64,000 nucleotides of DNA from an uncultured Nitrospiraceae bacterium. GTDB lineage: Bacteria > Nitrospirota > Nitrospiria > Nitrospirales > Nitrospiraceae. The stretch is from NCBI GenBank assembly GCA_963846575.1, contig CAWJWJ010000002.1, positions 192,001 to 256,000 of the forward strand. The letters run 5' to 3'. Every line of letters begins with the position of its first letter. Position 1 is the first letter of the stretch. Below the pieces are notes generated by a model that made no database searches, was not told the DNA's origin, and worked only from the letters and a program-made list of their open reading frames with translations. The translations under genes were made by a program, and so were the position numbers. Below, piece after piece: positions 55,810-63,880 of this stretch.

Positions 55810-56319
55810 CTAGGCCGGACGGTGCTGCTGCGCCCGAAATCCAAGAGGCGAGTGCCCGGTGGCACGTTTAAAAAAATGGCTGAAAGCGATTTGATTCCTG
55901 AACCCCAATGCCACCGCAATTTCCGATACCGTGTGTCCGGTGGTGGCCAATAACATTCCGGCCTGTTCGACACGTTGCCGTTTGACATAGCCAGAAAACG
56001 ATTCCCCCATTACTCTGTGAAAAAGGCCGGAGGAATACTTTTCCGAGTAGCCCAGGAAACGCGCCAAAATTTTGAGTGTGATCCCCCTGTTGAGATTCTT
56101 GCTGATGTACCGGGCGATGGTCTCGGACAGCGCGTCGCCCGCGGGCGGGGTCTCTCTTTCCTGCTCCAGCGAATTTTCCAGATTGAAGAGAAGGCACACA
56201 AGGTTGAGCAAATCCTGTTTCGAGCGGGCTTGGCTGATACGGTCGGCCCAGTGGGGCGCATGCGGTCGGAGTTCCGAGGAGAGTGCTTCCAGTCGAGCAA
56301 GGGGAATGATTGGAGTCAT
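55810..56319 (-). CDS. Short AraC-family transcriptional regulator
   Basis: LA..LG.S..Y...LF...G.SF..Y....R...A..LL......VSEIA..LGF.....FS.FFKR.TG.SP..FR. Confidence 0.88.
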   Translation of the reverse strand: MTPIIPLARLEALSSELRPHAPHWADRISQARSKQDLLNLVCLLFNLENSLEQERETPPAGDALSETIARYISKNLNRGITLKILARFLGYSEKYSSGLFHRVMGESFSGYVKRQRVEQAGMLLATTGHTVSEIAVALGFRNQIAFSHFFKRATGHSPLGFRAQQHRPA

Positions 56320-57173
56320 CGTTTGGCCGTTCGTGAGAAGTAAAGGTTGCTATCTCGTTGCTTCGGGGATTCGTGAGAGGCCGTTCTCGTGCTCTGAGCG
56401 GGCCCTCGGGTTGCCTGGGGAAGAAAGGAAAACTGGTTGAGTGCTTGCTCGTCGAGTAAGCGGCTGAAGGTTGCGAGCAGAGCCGGGTCGAATTGTGTCC
56501 CTGAGGATGCACGAAGAGTTCGCAGCGCAGCGTCAAGCGACTCCGATCGACTGGCGATTGCGTCGAAGCTGTCCGCGATGGCAAGGATTCTGGCTGCTAG
56601 AGGAATGTAGGTGCCCCGGAGTCCATAGGGGTACCCTGCTCCGTCCCAGCGCTCGTGATGATGAGCGATGAGCATTGCCGACTCAGAGAGAAATCGATAG
56701 GGACTCAAGAGTGCCGCACCCGCACGGGGGTGGCTCTGGACAAGGACATATTCTTCCAAAGTTAGAGACGAGGCCTCGTCGAGAAGCCCGGCGGGGAGGG
56801 TCAAGAGTCCAATGTCGTGGAGAAGCGCCGCATACTGTAAGGAGGTCACCTCTTCGTCGGTCAAACCGACCGCATGAGACATGACCTCAGCATAGTGGGC
56901 CGTACGTTCTCCGTGACCCACATGGTCGGGGAACGACGCTTCGAGTTGTCGTGCCACATGTCTGAGTTCCTGCAGCCGGACCTGCTTCAGCAGTTCATCA
57001 GGCAACCGTCGCTCATTCAGAGCCGTCAGCTGTGACGCGATTTCCCGCATGAGGTCTATGGTGCAGTTAGGGGCTTCTCTCGAAGTCAGCATAAGTAGGT
57101 TCCCCGGAAAGGCAGAGCCCGAGAACACTGTTGTGATCTCGGGCTCTGGGTGCAAACCTCTGGCCGCAGTCAT
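56316..57173 (-). CDS. HD-GYP domain protein (putative cyclic dinucleotide phosphodiesterase)
   Basis: H..R.A, LHDIG, HP, HHERWDGAGYP, RILAIADSFDA; ATGA overlap with AraC; start uncertain. Confidence 0.87.
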   Translation of the reverse strand: MTAARGLHPEPEITTVFSGSAFPGNLLMLTSREAPNCTIDLMREIASQLTALNERRLPDELLKQVRLQELRHVARQLEASFPDHVGHGERTAHYAEVMSHAVGLTDEEVTSLQYAALLHDIGLLTLPAGLLDEASSLTLEEYVLVQSHPRAGAALLSPYRFLSESAMLIAHHHERWDGAGYPYGLRGTYIPLAARILAIADSFDAIASRSESLDAALRTLRASSGTQFDPALLATFSRLLDEQALNQFSFLPQATRGPAQSTRTASHESPKQRDSNLYFSRTAKR

Positions 57174-57201
57174 AACCGGAATTAAATGTTTCGTTAGGTC
57201 A

Positions 57202-57717
57202 TCAGTGCTCTGTGCGCTTCCCCGCCATTAGGGGTTGTTTGAGCACCCACATCTCATAGATGGGGATCACAAACATGATCAAAAAACCGACTGTCATGAA
57301 CGTATCCCCCGTAAGCATGGTGAGGACAAAAAAAGGAGACACGTAACTGATCATCCAAGGGGAGACGAGATCCAGCATGACTCCACCGAATGAAATCCAT
57401 GTCGTAACCACCTTGAGGCGGTTACTGGTATTGGTGAGATAGAGTACGTGCACCAGGATGATGAAGACCACGGGCATCGTGAACAAGTGAAAGTGTGTGA
57501 TCTCGGCGAGCTCGCGGAATGACATGGGCTCGCCGAATGTCGCGTTGGAACCACGGTAGTGATCGGCAATGCCTTGAGGCGACAATCCGGTCATACTGTG
57601 AGCCCAGAAAAAGGAGAATGTGAAGCCGGCTAACATCAGGGCGAGGAAAAAGGTGTAGACCAACCGGATATGGCGATCCGAGTCCCGGAGGCGAAAACGA
57701 GAGTTAAAATTGCGCAT
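57202..57717 (-). CDS. Four-TM membrane protein with His residues
   Basis: Hydrophobic helices; ITHFHLFTM...LVHVL segment. Confidence 0.7.
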   Translation of the reverse strand: MRNFNSRFRLRDSDRHIRLVYTFFLALMLAGFTFSFFWAHSMTGLSPQGIADHYRGSNATFGEPMSFRELAEITHFHLFTMPVVFIILVHVLYLTNTSNRLKVVTTWISFGGVMLDLVSPWMISYVSPFFVLTMLTGDTFMTVGFLIMFVIPIYEMWVLKQPLMAGKRTEH

Positions 57718-57729
57718 CTCGGGTGAGGC

Positions 57730-58407
57730 TCAGTTTCCAAAAATAGATTTGAAGAAGCCCTTCTCGGATTTTTGGGCTGTAATAGTGTCGCTGCCTTGAC
57801 CCATGGGTTTGAGGTAAAACTCATCGACGAGCACTAACACTCGTTTAATTCCGGCGCTCATGGAACGGACAGACATGGTGGCTCCGCTGATATTGATGAT
57901 ATCTTTATTAATTCGCACCGGATCCAATACCGATTTGCCTTCGTATTGTGAGTTAAAACGCTTTGTCCGTACCTCGCTCCCACGTGCTTCCCGGAAGATG
58001 AGGAGCTCAATATTCGAGACGCGGCCTCGAGCATCCACCCCGACCATATATGTCATGGGCTTGTGTTTGCCGATGGTATTCTGTATGAAGGCATAGCCAT
58101 CGACGTGCCCGCCGGTCTCGCCAATATACACATCAAATGCTTCCTCGGGAAACTTCCAGCCGATTCGGTCTTCGATTACCGATTTCTTGTCTATCGGAAC
58201 CTGTAGCTGTTCCTTTCTGATATGTCCGGACTTCGGAAACATCAGTTTAACTGCCTCATCCTCTGTCAGGTATACTTCGGCCATCAGCATTTCTTGATCG
58301 GTTAAATAGCGCTTGAGCTCGCTATCCCAAACGCGCTCTGCAAACACTTCGACCGGAGATAGCGCGAAGACTATTATCAGCCAGATAATGAGCGGTAGAG
58401 CCTTCAT
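57730..58407 (-). CDS. Exported FMN-binding (flavinylation substrate) protein
   Basis: Signal peptide ending VFA; E.RG..V....F..Q..GK then ISGATMS [S/T]GAT motif. Confidence 0.85.
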   Translation of the reverse strand: MKALPLIIWLIIVFALSPVEVFAERVWDSELKRYLTDQEMLMAEVYLTEDEAVKLMFPKSGHIRKEQLQVPIDKKSVIEDRIGWKFPEEAFDVYIGETGGHVDGYAFIQNTIGKHKPMTYMVGVDARGRVSNIELLIFREARGSEVRTKRFNSQYEGKSVLDPVRINKDIINISGATMSVRSMSAGIKRVLVLVDEFYLKPMGQGSDTITAQKSEKGFFKSIFGN

Positions 58408-58868
58408 GTGGGCACACAGCCTTGTTCGGTTAGCTTTGCGTTGATTCTATCGATGATTTGATTCGTGGCCTCTTCCGATGGTTCTGCGGGCCACCATTTG
58501 GTGGCTTGTGACGTCGCTCCGCCGCGGGCGTGCCATCGCTGCCGGGTTTCCAAGACACTTACAGAGGCCACGTCGTTCGTTCGCTTCACGGCCACGCTCA
58601 TGCGGGCTCGTTCCCTATTCCCAAAGCCTTCGCGGCTAAAGATTCCAAACGATCGCTCTGAGAGAGGTGCGACATCCATCCATGCACCTTCGATCAGCCC
58701 TTTGCCCTTGTCGGACGAAGCAACGGATTGCCCCTTCATGGTATCGAGTGCGGCATCCCATACCACGTCATAAGAGCACACATAATATTGGTCCCGGCTC
58801 CCGCTCAGGGCGGCGCAGCCAGACAAGAGAATGGTAAGAGCTGTTACTGCAAGGCGTGAGGTGCGCAC
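58404..58868 (-). CDS. Lipoprotein of unknown function
   Basis: AAGGAG RBS, GTG start, MRTSRLAVTALTILLSG-C lipobox; ATGA overlap with the FMN-binding gene. Confidence 0.75.
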   Translation of the reverse strand: MRTSRLAVTALTILLSGCAALSGSRDQYYVCSYDVVWDAALDTMKGQSVASSDKGKGLIEGAWMDVAPLSERSFGIFSREGFGNRERARMSVAVKRTNDVASVSVLETRQRWHARGGATSQATKWWPAEPSEEATNQIIDRINAKLTEQGCVPT

Positions 58869-58893
58869 GGCGTCTGCTACTCCTTGTAATTCG

Positions 58894-58935: not shown

Positions 58936-60411
58936 CTAGAAATACGTTGCTGCTGAAAGCACAACTGCACTGTCGTGAATTCGTTCCCCGGTATTCGGAT
59001 TAAATGCCTTGGGCATGTACTGATAGCTGATCTTAAAGACCGCATCCTCGACGGGGCGATAATTCAGGCCGAAGGAGATTTGCTCCAACTCTCCCTGATT
59101 TTCGCCGCGATTATCGCGGTTTAAATTTACGCGGTCATACCGAACCACAGCCGTGAATGTGGATCCTTCTCCAAATCGCCTCGGTGAAAATTTAGACAGA
59201 AACGCCGGCATGAAGTGGTAGTTGCCTTGGACGTAGAACCCTTGCATTCGCTGCGGAGGGGCAGCAAATGAGTTCAATGTGTTCAGACCACTCAGCAACG
59301 TGCCAGGGGTTTGGAAAGTTGCACCTTGAATTGCACGAGAGTTGCCTCTCGAATACGCCCAAGCCGCTTCGCCGATAAGCTCGAACGGCCCCCGTTGAAG
59401 CGTCCAGTCTACTGCTGCGATGCTCAGTGGGTTGTAACTGGTGGGAGATGCATTCCCGAAGTAGCCGGACCCTGCGATCTCGACGCCGAGCATAGGGCTG
59501 TAGGCCATGCGACCGGATACAGCTTTGCCATTATTAATGTCAAAACCGTCATCTGATCCACATTTGCGTTGACGGGAATTCTTTGTGCCGTTCTCCTCAC
59601 TGATACGTGGAGAGCCATCTTGATTGTAACCGCAAGGACCTGTGGTCACATAGAACTCATAGTCCAACTTGCTCGTGCGGCCCGGATAGAGGGTGCCGTA
59701 AAACCCAGCGCCCGTTTCGGACATTGTTGACGGGATGATCAAGCGGCTGACAATTGGCCGATCGGTCAAATCGTTCAAAGGCGAGTCATGCAGCAAGTTA
59801 AATTTGCCGATGGGAATCAGCAAGATACCTGCTCGGATGTTAAAAGGTTCATTTACAAGATAGTCGATATGGGCGAACTCCAGGCTGATTTCGTTGTCAC
59901 TGGTCCCTCTAATCCCATGCTCGATTTCGATTTCAGAGGCAAACTTCACATGCTCCGTAATGTCTGCATAAATGAAGGGCACGAAACGCTGTTGATCGAA
60001 TCCGTTCGTCGTACCATTGCCGAAGCCGCCGGTCTCTAGGACGCCTCTACGGTGCGAGCGGTACTGGATGTCCATGTAGCCGCCCACAATAGCTTTTGGA
60101 GCTGCGACGAAGGGCTTTGCGTATACGAGGCGGCCCGAACCAGTTGAACCAAAGCCCAGGGCAGGTTGTTTGTCAGCCCGTCGTTCTTTGCCTACATCAG
60201 GAAGGTTGCCAATCCCGGGTTCCTCAGCCTCTGCGATCGGGCGCTCCCGTCGCTCCATGACACCTTCCCGTCGGTCGTGCTCGTGCAACCGCTGTTCTAC
60301 TGCTTCATCTACTAACTTTTTGATTTCCTCCGGGGTCATGTTTTCCGCCAATGCCGGCATGGCCGGTAATGTAGCCAGAACGAGAGCCCCGAGGAGTGCC
60401 CGCATCTTCAT
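58936..60411 (-). CDS. Outer-membrane beta-barrel porin-like protein
   Basis: GGAGG RBS, signal peptide ending ALA, periplasmic helical segment, amphipathic strands (SEIEIEH, LEFAHIDY, FGLNYRP), C-terminal ATYF. Confidence 0.85.
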   Translation of the reverse strand: MKMRALLGALVLATLPAMPALAENMTPEEIKKLVDEAVEQRLHEHDRREGVMERRERPIAEAEEPGIGNLPDVGKERRADKQPALGFGSTGSGRLVYAKPFVAAPKAIVGGYMDIQYRSHRRGVLETGGFGNGTTNGFDQQRFVPFIYADITEHVKFASEIEIEHGIRGTSDNEISLEFAHIDYLVNEPFNIRAGILLIPIGKFNLLHDSPLNDLTDRPIVSRLIIPSTMSETGAGFYGTLYPGRTSKLDYEFYVTTGPCGYNQDGSPRISEENGTKNSRQRKCGSDDGFDINNGKAVSGRMAYSPMLGVEIAGSGYFGNASPTSYNPLSIAAVDWTLQRGPFELIGEAAWAYSRGNSRAIQGATFQTPGTLLSGLNTLNSFAAPPQRMQGFYVQGNYHFMPAFLSKFSPRRFGEGSTFTAVVRYDRVNLNRDNRGENQGELEQISFGLNYRPVEDAVFKISYQYMPKAFNPNTGERIHDSAVVLSAATYF

Positions 60412-60545
60412 GGGTATCCTCCATCCGCGAGTTAGGGTTAGGTGTGACTCGGGACTCAAAGGTCTCTGGTCTATAAAGAAAACATGAGTATGAGATCGAT
60501 GATCTGGATGTGTGCCGGTGACGATGCCTCCTTTGCTATGTCGAA

Positions 60546-60725
60546 TCATGCTGTGACGGTGCCCCAGCCTTCGATCGAGGTGAATGGAATGACGACGATG
60601 CGTTTGCAACGTTTGCATTTCAACTCAAGCCCTTGCCCGCGAACCTTGGCGATCAGCTGCCCGCATTCGCAACGAGTCTCACTGCCATGACAGGACGGGA
60701 GCGTCGGGGGCGTCGTGTCGATCAT
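60546..60725 (-). CDS. 59-aa Com-like Cys4 metal-finger protein (absent from the ORF track)
   Basis: Hand translation MIDTTPPTLPSCHGSETRCECGQLIAKVRGQGLELKCKRCKRIVVIPFTSIEGWGTVTA; RCxCGxLIA...ELKCxRCK resembles the Mu Com finger. Confidence 0.75.
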   Translation of the reverse strand: MIDTTPPTLPSCHGSETRCECGQLIAKVRGQGLELKCKRCKRIVVIPFTSIEGWGTVTA

Positions 60726-60763
60726 AGGTTCGGCTATTCTTCTGCTGTGGTTTTAGATGAAAT

Positions 60764-60805
60764 TGAGAACGATTATTAGTATCTCGATGGAGTCTGGAAT
60801 GTCAA
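60764..60805 (-). promoter_or_regulatory. Promoter with overlapping Fur-like box for the finger-porin operon
   Basis: Minus strand TTGACA at 60805-60800; TGAGAAC-G-ATTATTA (60764-60778) matches the 7-1-7 Fur consensus at 11/14, over the -10/+1 region. Confidence 0.6.
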
Positions 60806-60873
60806 GTCTGTTGTGCGGGTCGTTCAGGCCCTGCCGGCGTGCATTCTTGAACTGCGGTACCTATAATTAGTTT

Positions 60874-61500
60874 ATGGTTCGACATATGCTTGGGCCCGTG
60901 TGCTGGCTGGTGATGGCGCTCACAGTCTGGTTGGGCGGCCCGTCGGGGTGCATCCGGGAGGTCTCGGCCGTCGCTAATCCAGAGGCAGGTCCGACCGTGC
61001 TGGTCGTGGGGCGCGCCCTGTCAGTGATCACCGGGGACCGTTCCCGGCGGTTTGAGCCGGAAGTGCGTCGCATGGAGCTCATGCAACGCCGGACCGGTCA
61101 GCGATACCGTGTGATGGTCAAGGGAGAGGATAAAATGTTTGCCTTTTTTCTTCCGGCAGGAGACTACGACATTACGCGAGTGCAAATTAACGAAGGGCCT
61201 TTTCTGTCCATGGCGAAGATGTCCTCCTCCTTCACGCTAGGACGTGATCCTGTCGCGTATGTCGGGGACTGGCGTTTTGGAGTCGAGTCACCGCGGTATG
61301 GACGTATGATGCTGGTGTCCATGGAAGCTCAAGACGACACGCGAGAAGTCGTCGTGCGCAAGATTCGAGAGGAGTATCCTGACCTCGCCGCGGCACCCCT
61401 GACCACCGTAATCCCTTCTCCCGCAGAATCACAGACCCGGCTTTTCGAAGTGTCGCCCTATCCCCGAGTCCCCAAATATTTTCAACGCCATAACTGGTAG
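60874..61500 (+). CDS. Exported hypothetical protein, possibly a lipoprotein
   Basis: Hydrophobic N-terminus ending PSG-C; LPAGDY and YVGD segments. Confidence 0.7.
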   Translation: MVRHMLGPVCWLVMALTVWLGGPSGCIREVSAVANPEAGPTVLVVGRALSVITGDRSRRFEPEVRRMELMQRRTGQRYRVMVKGEDKMFAFFLPAGDYDITRVQINEGPFLSMAKMSSSFTLGRDPVAYVGDWRFGVESPRYGRMMLVSMEAQDDTREVVVRKIREEYPDLAAAPLTTVIPSPAESQTRLFEVSPYPRVPKYFQRHNW

Positions 61501-61510
61501 GAGGGGTTTC

Positions 61511-62542
61511 GTGCCGATTGTGAATTCCACCATCGCGAATGGTCTTATGCTCGTGCTTCTGTTGGGGACGGGATGCGCCGGCGGCGAGGTCCGCCCTACC
61601 CCGGTGGTGGTCAAGCGCACCCAGATGCATATGGGCACTCTTGTCACGGTGACGGCGGTTGCACCCAACAGGTCCGGCGCGCAAGAGGCGGCGTCCGCGG
61701 GATTTCGAGAGATCCATCGGCTGGAAGAGTTGCTCAGTACATGGATCGCGACCAGCGAAGTGTCTCGTGTGAATGCAAAGGCCGGGAGGGAGGTTGTCGC
61801 AGTCGGTGCGGATACGATGCGTCTTCTGGAAAAGTCGCTCGAAATGGCTCGATTGACGGAGGGCGGCTTTAATGTCCTGGTGGGGCCCGCCGTTGAGGCG
61901 TGGAGCGTGATAGATCGGCAGCAAGTTCCATCGGACGCGACTCTGCATGCGATTCGCCCGCTCACGGATCTGAGATCGCTGCACCTGAATCCCGAGCAGG
62001 GGACAGTCTATCTGGCGAAGACGGGTATGCGGGTGGATGTCGGCGGTATTGGAAAAGGGTATGCCGCTGACATGGCTGTCGCTGCGATGCAGAAGAGCGG
62101 AGCGACGGCGGGGGTCGTCGCCATATCCGGTGATATCAAGACGTTTGGAAGGCTTCCCGGCGGCACCAAATTTCCCTTCGGCATTCGCCATCCCCGGCGA
62201 GAGGACACTGTCCTGGGATTCATCGATCTTCAGGACGAAGCGATTTCGACGGCTGGAGACTATGAACGGTATTTCGAACGGGACGGGGTACGCTACCATC
62301 ACATTCTTGATCCGGTGACCCTGCAGCCGGCACGTGATTGTCAAAGCGTCACGATCGTCGCCCGGGATGGGATCACGGCGGATGGGTTGGATACCGGGGT
62401 TTTCGTGATGGGGCGGGAGCGGGGGCTGGCCCTGATTGAACAGTTGCCGGGAGTCGGCGCGGTTATCGTAGATCGCGAGGGAAAGGTTTGGGTCTCTTCG
62501 TATCTCGCAGGGAGGATGAGGATCAATGATGTTCGCGAGTAA
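61511..62542 (+). CDS. apbE: FAD:protein FMN transferase
   Basis: Lipobox GTG-C, MGT, SEVSRVN, DVGGIGKGYAAD, STAGDYERYF, YHHILDP, ADGLDT. Confidence 0.93.
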   Translation: MPIVNSTIANGLMLVLLLGTGCAGGEVRPTPVVVKRTQMHMGTLVTVTAVAPNRSGAQEAASAGFREIHRLEELLSTWIATSEVSRVNAKAGREVVAVGADTMRLLEKSLEMARLTEGGFNVLVGPAVEAWSVIDRQQVPSDATLHAIRPLTDLRSLHLNPEQGTVYLAKTGMRVDVGGIGKGYAADMAVAAMQKSGATAGVVAISGDIKTFGRLPGGTKFPFGIRHPRREDTVLGFIDLQDEAISTAGDYERYFERDGVRYHHILDPVTLQPARDCQSVTIVARDGITADGLDTGVFVMGRERGLALIEQLPGVGAVIVDREGKVWVSSYLAGRMRINDVRE

Positions 62543-62909
62543 GTGGCCCGGTTGCGACCGTTTCCGCCTGTATCTGGTTGGGACGCCGTTCGAGGGAATT
62601 CGGCAGCCGAAAAGGGTATTCGGTTCGATCCTGGCTGGAGTGGTCATGCTGGTGGCCTGCAGCTCGGGCGGTAAATATTTCCAAGACGGCGTGAATGAGG
62701 CGACGCAAGCCATGGTTGGCAAGCGGTACGGCACGCCTCACAAGGTTCGCTCCTACGACGGCGGTGAAACCTGGACCTATTTCGAGCGTGGGAGTGGGAC
62801 CGCAGGGTTCAGCGGGCAGGTGCGAAGTGCTGCATGTCAGGCGTATGTCCTGACGTTCGATACGCAGACCGTGTTGCGAGGCTGGCAGAAGCAGCCTTGT
62901 GAAGGTTAG
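62526..62909 (+). CDS. Small putative lipoprotein (SmpA/OmlA-like pattern)
   Basis: LVA-C lipobox, YG.P, ETWTY, L.FD...VL; start uncertain. Confidence 0.6.
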   Translation: MMFASKWPGCDRFRLYLVGTPFEGIRQPKRVFGSILAGVVMLVACSSGGKYFQDGVNEATQAMVGKRYGTPHKVRSYDGGETWTYFERGSGTAGFSGQVRSAACQAYVLTFDTQTVLRGWQKQPCEG

Positions 62910-62920
62910 TCGGTTCCCTG

Positions 62921-63880
62921 TTACCGGCCAAGGCGGTAACTGAGGGGAATCTGAATCGTCACCGGGGATTTCTCGAGCGGCCGCGATAACGCGATCGGTG
63001 AGGCTCGACGGAGTGTGTCGAGTGCGGCCTGATCGAGGACGTCGTGCCCGGAGCTCTTTGCAATCGCGATAGAGGCGATCCTCCCGTCATCTTCGATCAC
63101 AATTCTCAGGATCACGCGACCTTCCAGATGGTTCAGTCGTGCGGAGGCAGGATATTGCTTCAGCGATTCGATTCTCTGGAGAAGGGAATCGGCGAGCCAT
63201 CCGTAGTCGGGTTTCCGGACCCCGGGGGGCGCGATCGCTGGCGAAGGTACCGACGCGACGTGCGGATTTGAAGTTTCCGGGTGAGGCGCCGCCGCTGACT
63301 CCGGCAACCGGGTGGACGGATCAACAGGAGGAGAAGCATGCGCTTCCAGCGGAGCCGGTGTCTGCTGAAGAGCAGGCAGATCCTCAGGGGTTGCCGTTGA
63401 CGGCATCCCTCCAGAGTGTGGAACGTCCGGCTCACTTGTCATCCGCTGCTGTTCCTGAACAGGCTCAGGTGTGCTCTCAGCTAAGGGCTGTCGAGATTCA
63501 ACATATTGAGGTGTGGGCTCTGAATTGTGGGGCGGATGGCCGGGAGCTGTGGTCGTCAGGGGCGGTACCGGTGCGGCTTGGGACGGTTTGACGGATGGAC
63601 TGCTGCGTGCCTTCTTAGCAGACGGGCCTGGAGGTCTTGGTTTAGGATTCTCGGGAGCAGCGGTCGCTTCGGAGGGCCCCGGCTCCCCGGTGCCGGGGTC
63701 TGCTGGATGAACAACCGTCACATCCCATTGAAACAACGGAGAGGGAGGCGCCAGGCGGATTTTAGCTACCAGGAGGCCTGCCAGGAAGATGATACCGACA
63801 TGGAGAGATAGTGAGACGATCCACCCGCTGGTCCGGAGTCGGAACAGGTCGCCGGGTATCCCGGGGTGCTGGGTGGTCAC
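62921..63880 (-). CDS. tonB: TonB family energy transducer
   Basis: TM with SLSLH, Pro-rich linker, YP..AR...LEG.V, SSG..VLD.AAL. Confidence 0.9.
   Translation of the reverse strand: MTTQHPGIPGDLFRLRTSGWIVSLSLHVGIIFLAGLLVAKIRLAPPSPLFQWDVTVVHPADPGTGEPGPSEATAAPENPKPRPPGPSAKKARSSPSVKPSQAAPVPPLTTTAPGHPPHNSEPTPQYVESRQPLAESTPEPVQEQQRMTSEPDVPHSGGMPSTATPEDLPALQQTPAPLEAHASPPVDPSTRLPESAAAPHPETSNPHVASVPSPAIAPPGVRKPDYGWLADSLLQRIESLKQYPASARLNHLEGRVILRIVIEDDGRIASIAIAKSSGHDVLDQAALDTLRRASPIALSRPLEKSPVTIQIPLSYRLGR

Follow-up and report, generated by a model that had tools for sequence, protein, structure and literature searches.

We analysed a stretch of 64,000 nucleotides (nt) from an uncultured Nitrospiraceae bacterium (assembly GCA_963846575.1, contig CAWJWJ010000002.1, positions 192,001 to 256,000; referred to as the window), in which a small gene resembling com of phage Mu lies directly upstream of a porin gene, separated from it by a leader with conserved RNA features. 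Both genes are encoded on the minus strand. The small gene (60546..60725, read 60725-60546) specifies a Cys4 zinc-ribbon protein of 59 amino acids (aa) with the sequence RCECGQLIAK...ELKCKRCKR and was recognised by conservation, synteny and homology to Com. The porin (58936..60411, 491 aa) is of the Porin_O_P type, with a PF07396 score of 27.5 bits versus a cut-off of 20.9, and is also identified by its synteny with the 59-aa gene. An intergenic spacer of 134 nt extends from the TGA of the 59-aa gene (60548-60546) to the porin ATG (60411) and contains the porin Shine-Dalgarno sequence (SD) GGAGG (60418..60422), which is invariant in 20 loci of the genus. No terminator-like site was found between the two genes on the operon strand, and the covariance models of Rfam 15 gave 0 matches in 60200-61000 at an expectation value (E) of ≤10. 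All features named in the original prediction, i.e., the open reading frame (ORF), TTGACA, a Fur-like box, the 134-nt spacer, three GAG units, a local stem and the SD, were found on the minus strand where they had been placed.

A promoter scan of 60200-61000 recovered a single promoter-like site, at 60805 (shuffle mean 0.4). It consists of the -35 hexamer TTGACA (60800..60805), found as CTTGACA in 20/20 genus loci without variation, and a -10-like GATACT 16 nt downstream (60783-60778; promoter score 10/12), both on the minus strand. The -10 hexamer is overlapped by the AT-rich box GATACTAATAATCGTTCTC (60765..60783, read 60783-60765). Compared by eye with GATAATGATAATCATTATC, which we take to be the E. 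coli consensus of the 19-bp AT-rich Fur operator, this box agrees in 15/19 positions. Its segment GAT..TAATAATCGTTCTCAATTT is nearly invariant in the 20 genus loci, and the promoter with its box, the GAG element of the leader and the SD are all invariant across the same loci. The predicted position of the 59-aa gene as the first gene behind a Fur-like box was confirmed in this set, the box being conserved in 20/20 loci; similar AT-rich boxes precede the Com-like gene in other families as well. Three Fur-family genes (PF01475) score above the cut-off in the genome, one about 8 kb from the 59-aa gene and one beside a second Com-like gene. The former, at G000:C2:260697-261050 (G000 being the genome of the window) and about 4.7 kb past the right end of the window, is the best-scoring Fur-family gene of the genome.

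The presence of the 59-aa gene was assessed by a six-frame search of 61 related genomes. Judging from how sources name the closest proteins and loci, the organism of the window is a Nitrospira. The gene was detected in 36/36 genomes of the genus, in 10/10 genomes of a second family (f2), in 4/9 of a third (f3) and in 2/5 of a fourth. In 20 genus loci, a core of 45 residues is nearly invariant while the DNA varies at synonymous third positions. Because of this genus-wide presence and the synonymous changes, we take the ORF, on comparative evidence, to be a real gene under strong purifying selection. The four cysteines at residues 19, 21, 37 and 40 form the arrangement CxC...CxxC and are all invariant, so that conservation of the ORF and of its Cys spacing, on which the original prediction had been made to depend, was found in the relatives. 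In an alignment of 17 family sequences (A1), R18, C19, C21, G22, A26, K36, C37, R39 and C40 do not vary. An AlphaFold2 (AF2) model shows a three-stranded zinc ribbon, with a predicted local distance difference test score (pLDDT) of about 90 over residues 21-50. Searching 50,697 phage records with tblastn gave no match at E≤1, and the conservation of the gene across the genus rules out a hitch-hiking phage remnant; the claim of a chromosomal, non-phage Com-like gene is upheld by both results. The gene was described as hidden in the original prediction, which does not apply to every public source: most call its orthologues hypothetical, but some already use the labels "Mu-like prophage FluMu protein com" or "phage FluMu protein Com".

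Similarity to Com was detected at several levels. In BLASTP against Mu Com (from AF083977), the window protein reached E 5e-5 with 35% identity over 31 residues and a one-residue gap in the first knuckle. Using hhalign, alignment A1 matched Mu Com with 91.7% (E 7.7e-7) and an alignment of 16 PF10122-annotated Com homologues with a probability of 96.9% (E 1.9e-10, 33 columns), in agreement with the predicted Com-like nature of the peptide. PF10122 is the commonest sub-threshold Pfam match of the family (7/17 members at E≤1, best 0.0022). When 1.84 billion representatives were searched with a profile of the family (clusters at 50% identity, E≤0.001), at least 1354 Com-like clusters were obtained. 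The CxC...CxxC arrangement occurs in 147 of the best 149 representatives; PF10122 is the commonest Pfam match of these as well, yet it is found in only 14/149 at E≤0.01 and exceeds the cut-off in only 1. From the profile similarity to Com, the prevalence of CxC and the weak PF10122 matches, we therefore place the 59-aa protein as a divergent Com homologue in a large CxC sister branch, most of which escapes current models. Structure-based searches were less specific: Foldseek of the AF2 model against BFVD found generic zinc ribbons only, none at E≤0.001, and the sequence profile found nothing below E 0.06 in PDB, where no Com structure was encountered.

The leader was examined in 97 distinct sequences from 111 loci (85 Nitrospira-type, 9 f2 and 3 f3; the search pattern missed one further locus), with loci from GTDB representing 80 of 598 among the matches listed. 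In the window, the leader carries the bipartite element CCAGAGACC-UUU-GAGUCCCGAGUC (60446..60469, minus strand), within which lie the units GAGACC (60466-60461), GAGTCC (60457-60452) and GAGTCA (60450-45), and which can form the small hairpin GAC[CNNNGA]GUC. The exact form CCAGAGACC-NNN-GAGUCCCGAGUC is present in 82/85 distinct genus leaders, with 16 different NNN spacers. The corresponding element of f3 is GAGGACC-CC-GAGUCCC, and that of f2 is GAGGACC-N3-5-GAGUCCCC, accompanied by a second copy, GAGGGCC-N4-GAGCCCC. In the 4.2-Mb genome, the exact 24-nt element occurs only once, which rules out that the motif is a regulon signal placed before other genes of this genome.

This motif had been derived from the alignments independently, ahead of its comparison with the target of Com. 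[quoted passage not shown] The SELEX form is present exactly in 3/3 f3 leaders and, with N2-4, in 9/9 f2 leaders; a form in which the first half-site is one nucleotide shorter is found in 83/85 genus leaders. The pattern GAGNNCC(N)2-3GAGNNCC occurs 44 times on both strands of the 4.2-Mb genome, corresponding to 0.0007 expected per 134 nt. The GAG units, to which the original prediction had drawn attention, thus turned out to be the core of a conserved motif equal in form to the experimentally defined RNA target of Com.

The hairpin is also retained. All 17 instances in f2 and f3 form 4/4 stem pairs, and they do so with four different complementary stems (GGAC/GUCC, GGGC/GCCC, GGGU/ACCC and GAGC/GCUC), i.e., the hairpin covaries. 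Six genus matches to the same pattern form only 2/4 pairs in that register; in the genus the hairpin is GAC[CNNNGA]GUC instead. Folded alone, it is weak in the genus (-1.3 kcal/mol) compared to f3 (-4.2 kcal/mol).

A different structure had been proposed originally, namely a local inhibitory stem in which GUCCCGAGU (60455-60447) pairs with ACUCG-C-GGAU (60432-60423) and which ends beside GGAGG. This pairing is possible in the window; its 3′ arm ACUCGCGGAU (60423..60432, minus strand) is specific to part of the genus. In 45 diverse genus leaders, pairing is seen in 76.8% of the cells, and 25-29/45 leaders break the three pairs at the centre, which rules out the local stem as a conserved inhibitory hairpin. 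Hence, while the GAG motif in the leader was found conserved as expected, the stem proposed along with it was not. In its place, RNAalifold recovered from the 45 leaders one consensus structure only, a helix of the motif (GAGA and GUCCCGAG) with porin codons 7-10, CUCGGGGCUCUC.

The 5′ arm of this long-range helix is GAGUCCCGAG (60448..60457, minus strand), as indicated by single-sequence folds, the RNAalifold consensus and counts across leaders. Its partner CUCGGGGCUC (60393-60384) is part of an element in the porin ORF covering codons 6-10 (60384..60396, minus strand). In the 10-bp register GAGUCCCGAG x CUCGGGGCUC, 99.1% of the cells pair. All 10/10 pairs are present in 80/85 leaders, and the remaining five lose one pair each; in four of the 80 leaders with a full helix, pairing is kept through changes from U.G to U-A or from G-C to G.U. 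Minimum free energy and centroid folds gave such a helix, enclosing SD and AUG, in 10/10 tested leaders of the three families. In f3, this ORF region is joined to the motif by a different perfect complement of 12-13 bp, which was reached by 0-1/300 shuffles. The codons concerned are frozen: in 83 sequences, synonymous entropy is 0-0.2 bits at porin codons 6-9, whereas Ala, Leu and Val codons further along the gene have 1.3-2.0 bits, and the codons retained are non-preferred ones (GCT, GGG and CTC, with 10%, 24% and 29% of genome usage, respectively). Comparing cognate and non-cognate duplex energies over long segments gave modest or mixed support. The ORF element has two competing partners, because the SD can also pair with codons 6-7: the (A/C)UCCUC preceding CUCGGGGCUC can pair with the GAGGAU of the SD, and this pairing is possible in 91.8% of the cells.

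The same observations bear on whether the element acts as RNA at all. GAGACC-N3-GAGTCC has the form of a direct repeat, and canonical Com homologues carry the NCBI name "Com family DNA-binding transcriptional regulator"; accordingly, the repeats could be a DNA operator for a transcription factor, perhaps for the 59-aa protein itself. Against this, the stems covary as hairpins, and the position of the element, 300 nt downstream of its promoter, is within the transcript. Since the long-range helix contains a U.G pair and variants which create G.U pairs, it points to sense-strand RNA rather than DNA; the G.U pairs would be A-C mismatches on the other strand. Com itself is documented as RNA-binding in the part of PMC6483171 concerned with its target. 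We consider a DNA operator very improbable.

A further, perfect SD-like sequence, AAAGGAGG (60527..60534, minus strand), lies 12 nt after the stop of the 59-aa gene but is not followed by an ORF. Of the genus leaders, 33/45 have AAGGAGG, as do 4/9 f2 leaders. A start codon follows 4-12 nt after it in only 4/45 genus leaders, which rules out a small ORF. AAAGGAGG could serve as a decoy with which the CCUC of the ORF element pairs, or as a ribosome site that stabilises the mRNA, for which the STAB-SD of cryIIIA is a parallel.

The 59-aa gene is firmly associated with the porin. A porin homologue follows it in 19/20 genus loci, and the remaining contig ends before the porin position; the spacer measures 134 nt in 15/19 of these loci. 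In f2 and f3, the porin is downstream in 12/12 loci too, at only 39-51% porin identity, and the pairing of a Com-like gene with a porin recurs in two distant lineages (L137 and L138). For comparison, ten related genomes without a Com-like match at E≤1e-3 were analysed, two of which have weak matches (E 0.2-0.5). A porin orthologue (46-60% identity) exists in all ten. Within about 1 kb upstream of it, a Com-like frame was found in 0/10 (best profile E 2.2) and a GAG..CC motif in 0/10, with one region being N-masked. In cassette-free loci L149, L155, L156 and probably L150, the AT-rich box AATTGAGAACGAATCGCAATT directly precedes the porin SD; the same box precedes the Com-like gene in the f3 loci L032 and L034. 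Because the cassette-free loci join the box to the SD, the Com-like gene and leader behave as a unit which can be inserted or deleted between operator and ribosome-binding site (RBS). Decay was seen in a single case, the duplicate porin locus L148 (G095:C31:27200-32700): in its Com-like gene, a TGA ends the frame prematurely and the near-invariant K27, E34 and K41 are replaced; its leader motif is degraded to CCAGAGAUCUUUAAGUUUCAAGUC, yet the porin still has an intact frame. Gene and motif share their presence and absence.

An alternative is that the leader is a protein-independent RNA element, which might stabilise the mRNA, provide a site for RNase III or put a fixed brake on translation, and that the 59-aa protein does something else, such as handling metal or partnering another iron-uptake protein. 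Members of the family do occur at iron loci without a co-directional downstream gene, like the second copy in the window genome beside a Fur-family gene, a PepSY_TM gene and a convergent receptor gene, and Cys4 ribbons are able to bind Fe. However, the motif equals the Com target, gene and motif were gained, lost and degraded together, and the homology of the protein is to an RNA-binding protein. We therefore regard this explanation as unlikely.

Gene and element together most likely constitute a cis-acting post-transcriptional control of the porin, in which a phage-style protein-RNA switch probably tunes porin synthesis. We infer that the 59-aa protein binds RNA and that this binding affects the porin, as follows. 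The protein, first gene product of the porin operon, would be transcribed from the Fur-type promoter and would bind in cis to the bipartite element GAG..CC-N3-GAG..CC, located 45-60 nt upstream of where the porin starts. The element would have two mutually exclusive pairings: a small hairpin showing CC-NNN-GA in its loop, the form recognised by Com, and the 10-bp long-range helix with porin codons 7-10, which would enclose SD and AUG. Occupancy by the protein would shift the balance between these pairings and thereby set porin translation on top of transcriptional iron control. As a whole, we consider this explanation, i.e., a Com-like protein binding the leader element and setting porin translation, to be probable.

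The direction of such control was approached by a crude mimic of protein occupancy, in which the motif was forced single-stranded and the cost of opening the RBS was computed. For the interval -15..+6, the RBS became less accessible in 65/83 genus leaders, while 4 were more open, 13 neutral and 1 had no motif; for -18..+16, it became less accessible in 58/83. In f2, it became more accessible in 6-7/9 leaders, and f3 was mixed (1/3 more accessible). Forcing control stretches open had little effect on the RBS. Activation as in Mu is thus not supported by folding in the genus, and the models leave repression as a live alternative.

In the repressing version, which is nested in the explanation given above and whose likelihood is not to be added to it, the leader arm would be an anti-sequestor. 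Pairing of the arm with codons 7-10 would keep AUCCUC off the SD, so that the porin is ON by default, and the protein would capture the arm, free the anti-SD and repress the porin. The result would be negative feedback and, if folding of the Cys4 ribbon needs Fe or Zn, a fast shut-off when metal is replete. Besides the raised opening cost in 65/83 or 58/83 genus leaders, this version is consistent with the possible pairing of SD and codons 6-7 in 91.8% of the cells, and it gives a role to all three conserved elements. Furthermore, the long helix at +19..+28 falls outside the translation initiation footprint. On the other hand, f2 leaders model oppositely, folding mimics protein binding only crudely, and the elements of Com-like paralogues (see below) overlap terminators, suggesting that binding would relieve a block. 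In addition, Com is an activator in Mu, as stated in the part of PMC6483171 on its function. The repressing version in this specific form is possible, and we hold it tentatively. Within the favoured explanation of a Com-like protein acting on the leader, we give activation, as in Mu, slightly better than an even chance, and repression slightly less than one.

Several observations weigh against a Com-like switch at this locus. The window protein has no match to PF10122 even at E≤0.1, hence lies below the gathering score, and its first knuckle is CxC instead of the canonical CxxC of Com, which could alter specificity. In its first half-site, the genus motif is one nucleotide away from the SELEX form, and the Com used for SELEX was a CxxC protein of another organism. 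Concerning the long-range helix, no two-sided pair changes were found within the genus, and covariation statistics are silent there because no pair changes on both sides. In a longest-helix shuffle test, a 10-bp helix was reached in 7-37/300 shuffles of single genus sequences, which makes it only modestly improbable there, and f2 was not significant. Cassette-free f3 genomes retain AUCAUCGGGGUCCUC in the porin ORF, and in these genomes the ORF arm is independent of the leader. Finally, folding does not decide between activation and repression, since the models disagree between lineages.

Compared with known systems, the locus is closest to Com-mom of Mu (PF10122). [quoted passage not shown] In contrast to Mu, the first knuckle is CxC and the protein remains below the Pfam cut-off; the genes are 134 nt apart, without overlap; the motif competes with a long-range helix to codons 7-10, whereas in Mu a local hairpin holds SD and start codon; and the gene is a chromosomal, Fur-linked core gene of the genus with a porin as cargo and ApbE, TonB, FMN_bind and HD-GYP genes as neighbours. 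Fur-repressed iron-uptake operons likewise have a 19-bp AT-rich box over the -10 of a strong promoter before outer-membrane uptake genes, and Fur genes exist in this genome, but here an additional post-transcriptional layer is predicted between operator and cargo RBS. CsrA/RsmA are small proteins that bind a short purine motif in hairpin loops near the RBS and change ribosome access. With these and with sequestor/anti-sequestor leaders, the locus shares a purine motif in a hairpin loop near the RBS and a small protein as candidate binder; CsrA, however, is global, trans-acting and without a zinc finger, whereas the candidate regulator is encoded in cis and its element occurs once in the genome.

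Com-like genes preceding cargo other than mom have been described before. The part of PMC3299994 on FluMu/Pnm1 methyltransferases reports them in Mu-like prophages, and the corresponding part of PMC6240691 reports them in Pseudomonas before genes for the llpA bacteriocin, tailocin lysis and glycosyl hydrolases, where their role is stated to be unexplored. As far as these accounts go, the likeness consists of a portable cassette ahead of unrelated cargo, with possible Com sites at the 5′ end of the cargo. Those genes belong to PF10122 and to prophages or tailocins, whereas ours is of the CxC branch and part of a housekeeping iron-uptake operon, with an RNA element and an alternative pairing defined. 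New in the present case is that a CxC Com-like protein is combined with a recognisable RNA element and an alternative pairing over a long range, and that the combination is fixed in an iron-uptake operon of the chromosome. A titles-level literature search combining Com-like/PF10122 proteins with Nitrospira iron, Fur, porin or TonB found no paper on such a Nitrospira module.

So far, Com has been viewed as a peculiarity of phages, with a single toxic gene to unlock. A similar protein-RNA logic would here belong to the core genome shared by the main nitrite-oxidising bacteria, before an iron-regulated porin and with an RNA partner that is readable from the sequence. Three things are thereby opened to testing: whether iron control in Nitrospira has a second layer, at the post-transcriptional level; what a large zinc-ribbon family without annotation does; and a compact, self-contained protein/RNA cassette which could serve as an orthogonal expression switch. 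The question on Com-like genes of Pseudomonas, as posed in that part of PMC6240691, gains a system in which candidate target, structure and phylogenetic gain and loss are defined. More speculatively, and in our view rather doubtful at present, the CxC Com branch might represent cis-encoded RNA switches as a general class among free-living bacteria. Every copy would be a cassette with its own GAG..CC hairpin target, gating outer-membrane uptake genes (porins, TonB-dependent receptors) by RBS remodelling or terminator override, and the Cys4 ribbon would serve as an Fe/Zn sensor adding a post-transcriptional iron signal to Fur.

Com-like paralogues were also seen at other loci. In further genomes of the Nitrospira family (L117-L128, L131, L141, L144-L146), they are flanked by TonB with a gene of 153 aa on one side and by a TonB-dependent receptor gene on the other; at L141 and L129, a Com-like paralogue precedes an HD-GYP gene. 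The paralogues are followed by an element of their own, AGAGGCC-AAA-GGAC[7-nt loop]GUCC-AGAGCCC, with the general form GAGGCC-AGAGGNC-loop-GNCC-GAGCCC, the last unit of which continues into the stem (10 bp) of a terminator that has a U-run. These elements may be Com-type antitermination switches. The second Com-like gene of the window genome (L022, 3064-3243; L022 = G000:C2:1195500-1202000) belongs to another iron locus, together with a Fur-family gene, a PepSY_TM protein gene, a convergent STN-TonB-dependent receptor gene and a FecR-like frame; no GAG..CC motif was found downstream of it in L022. In four members of the family (P0122, P0123, P0125 and P0129; 99-127 aa), two CxC Com-like ribbons are fused in tandem. 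In the window itself, the operon continues after the porin (56316-58870, minus strand) with genes for a lipoprotein, an FMN_bind protein (RnfG-like), an Aq_1264_TM-type membrane protein and an HD-GYP protein, and ApbE and TonB genes (61511-63880) are divergent from it.

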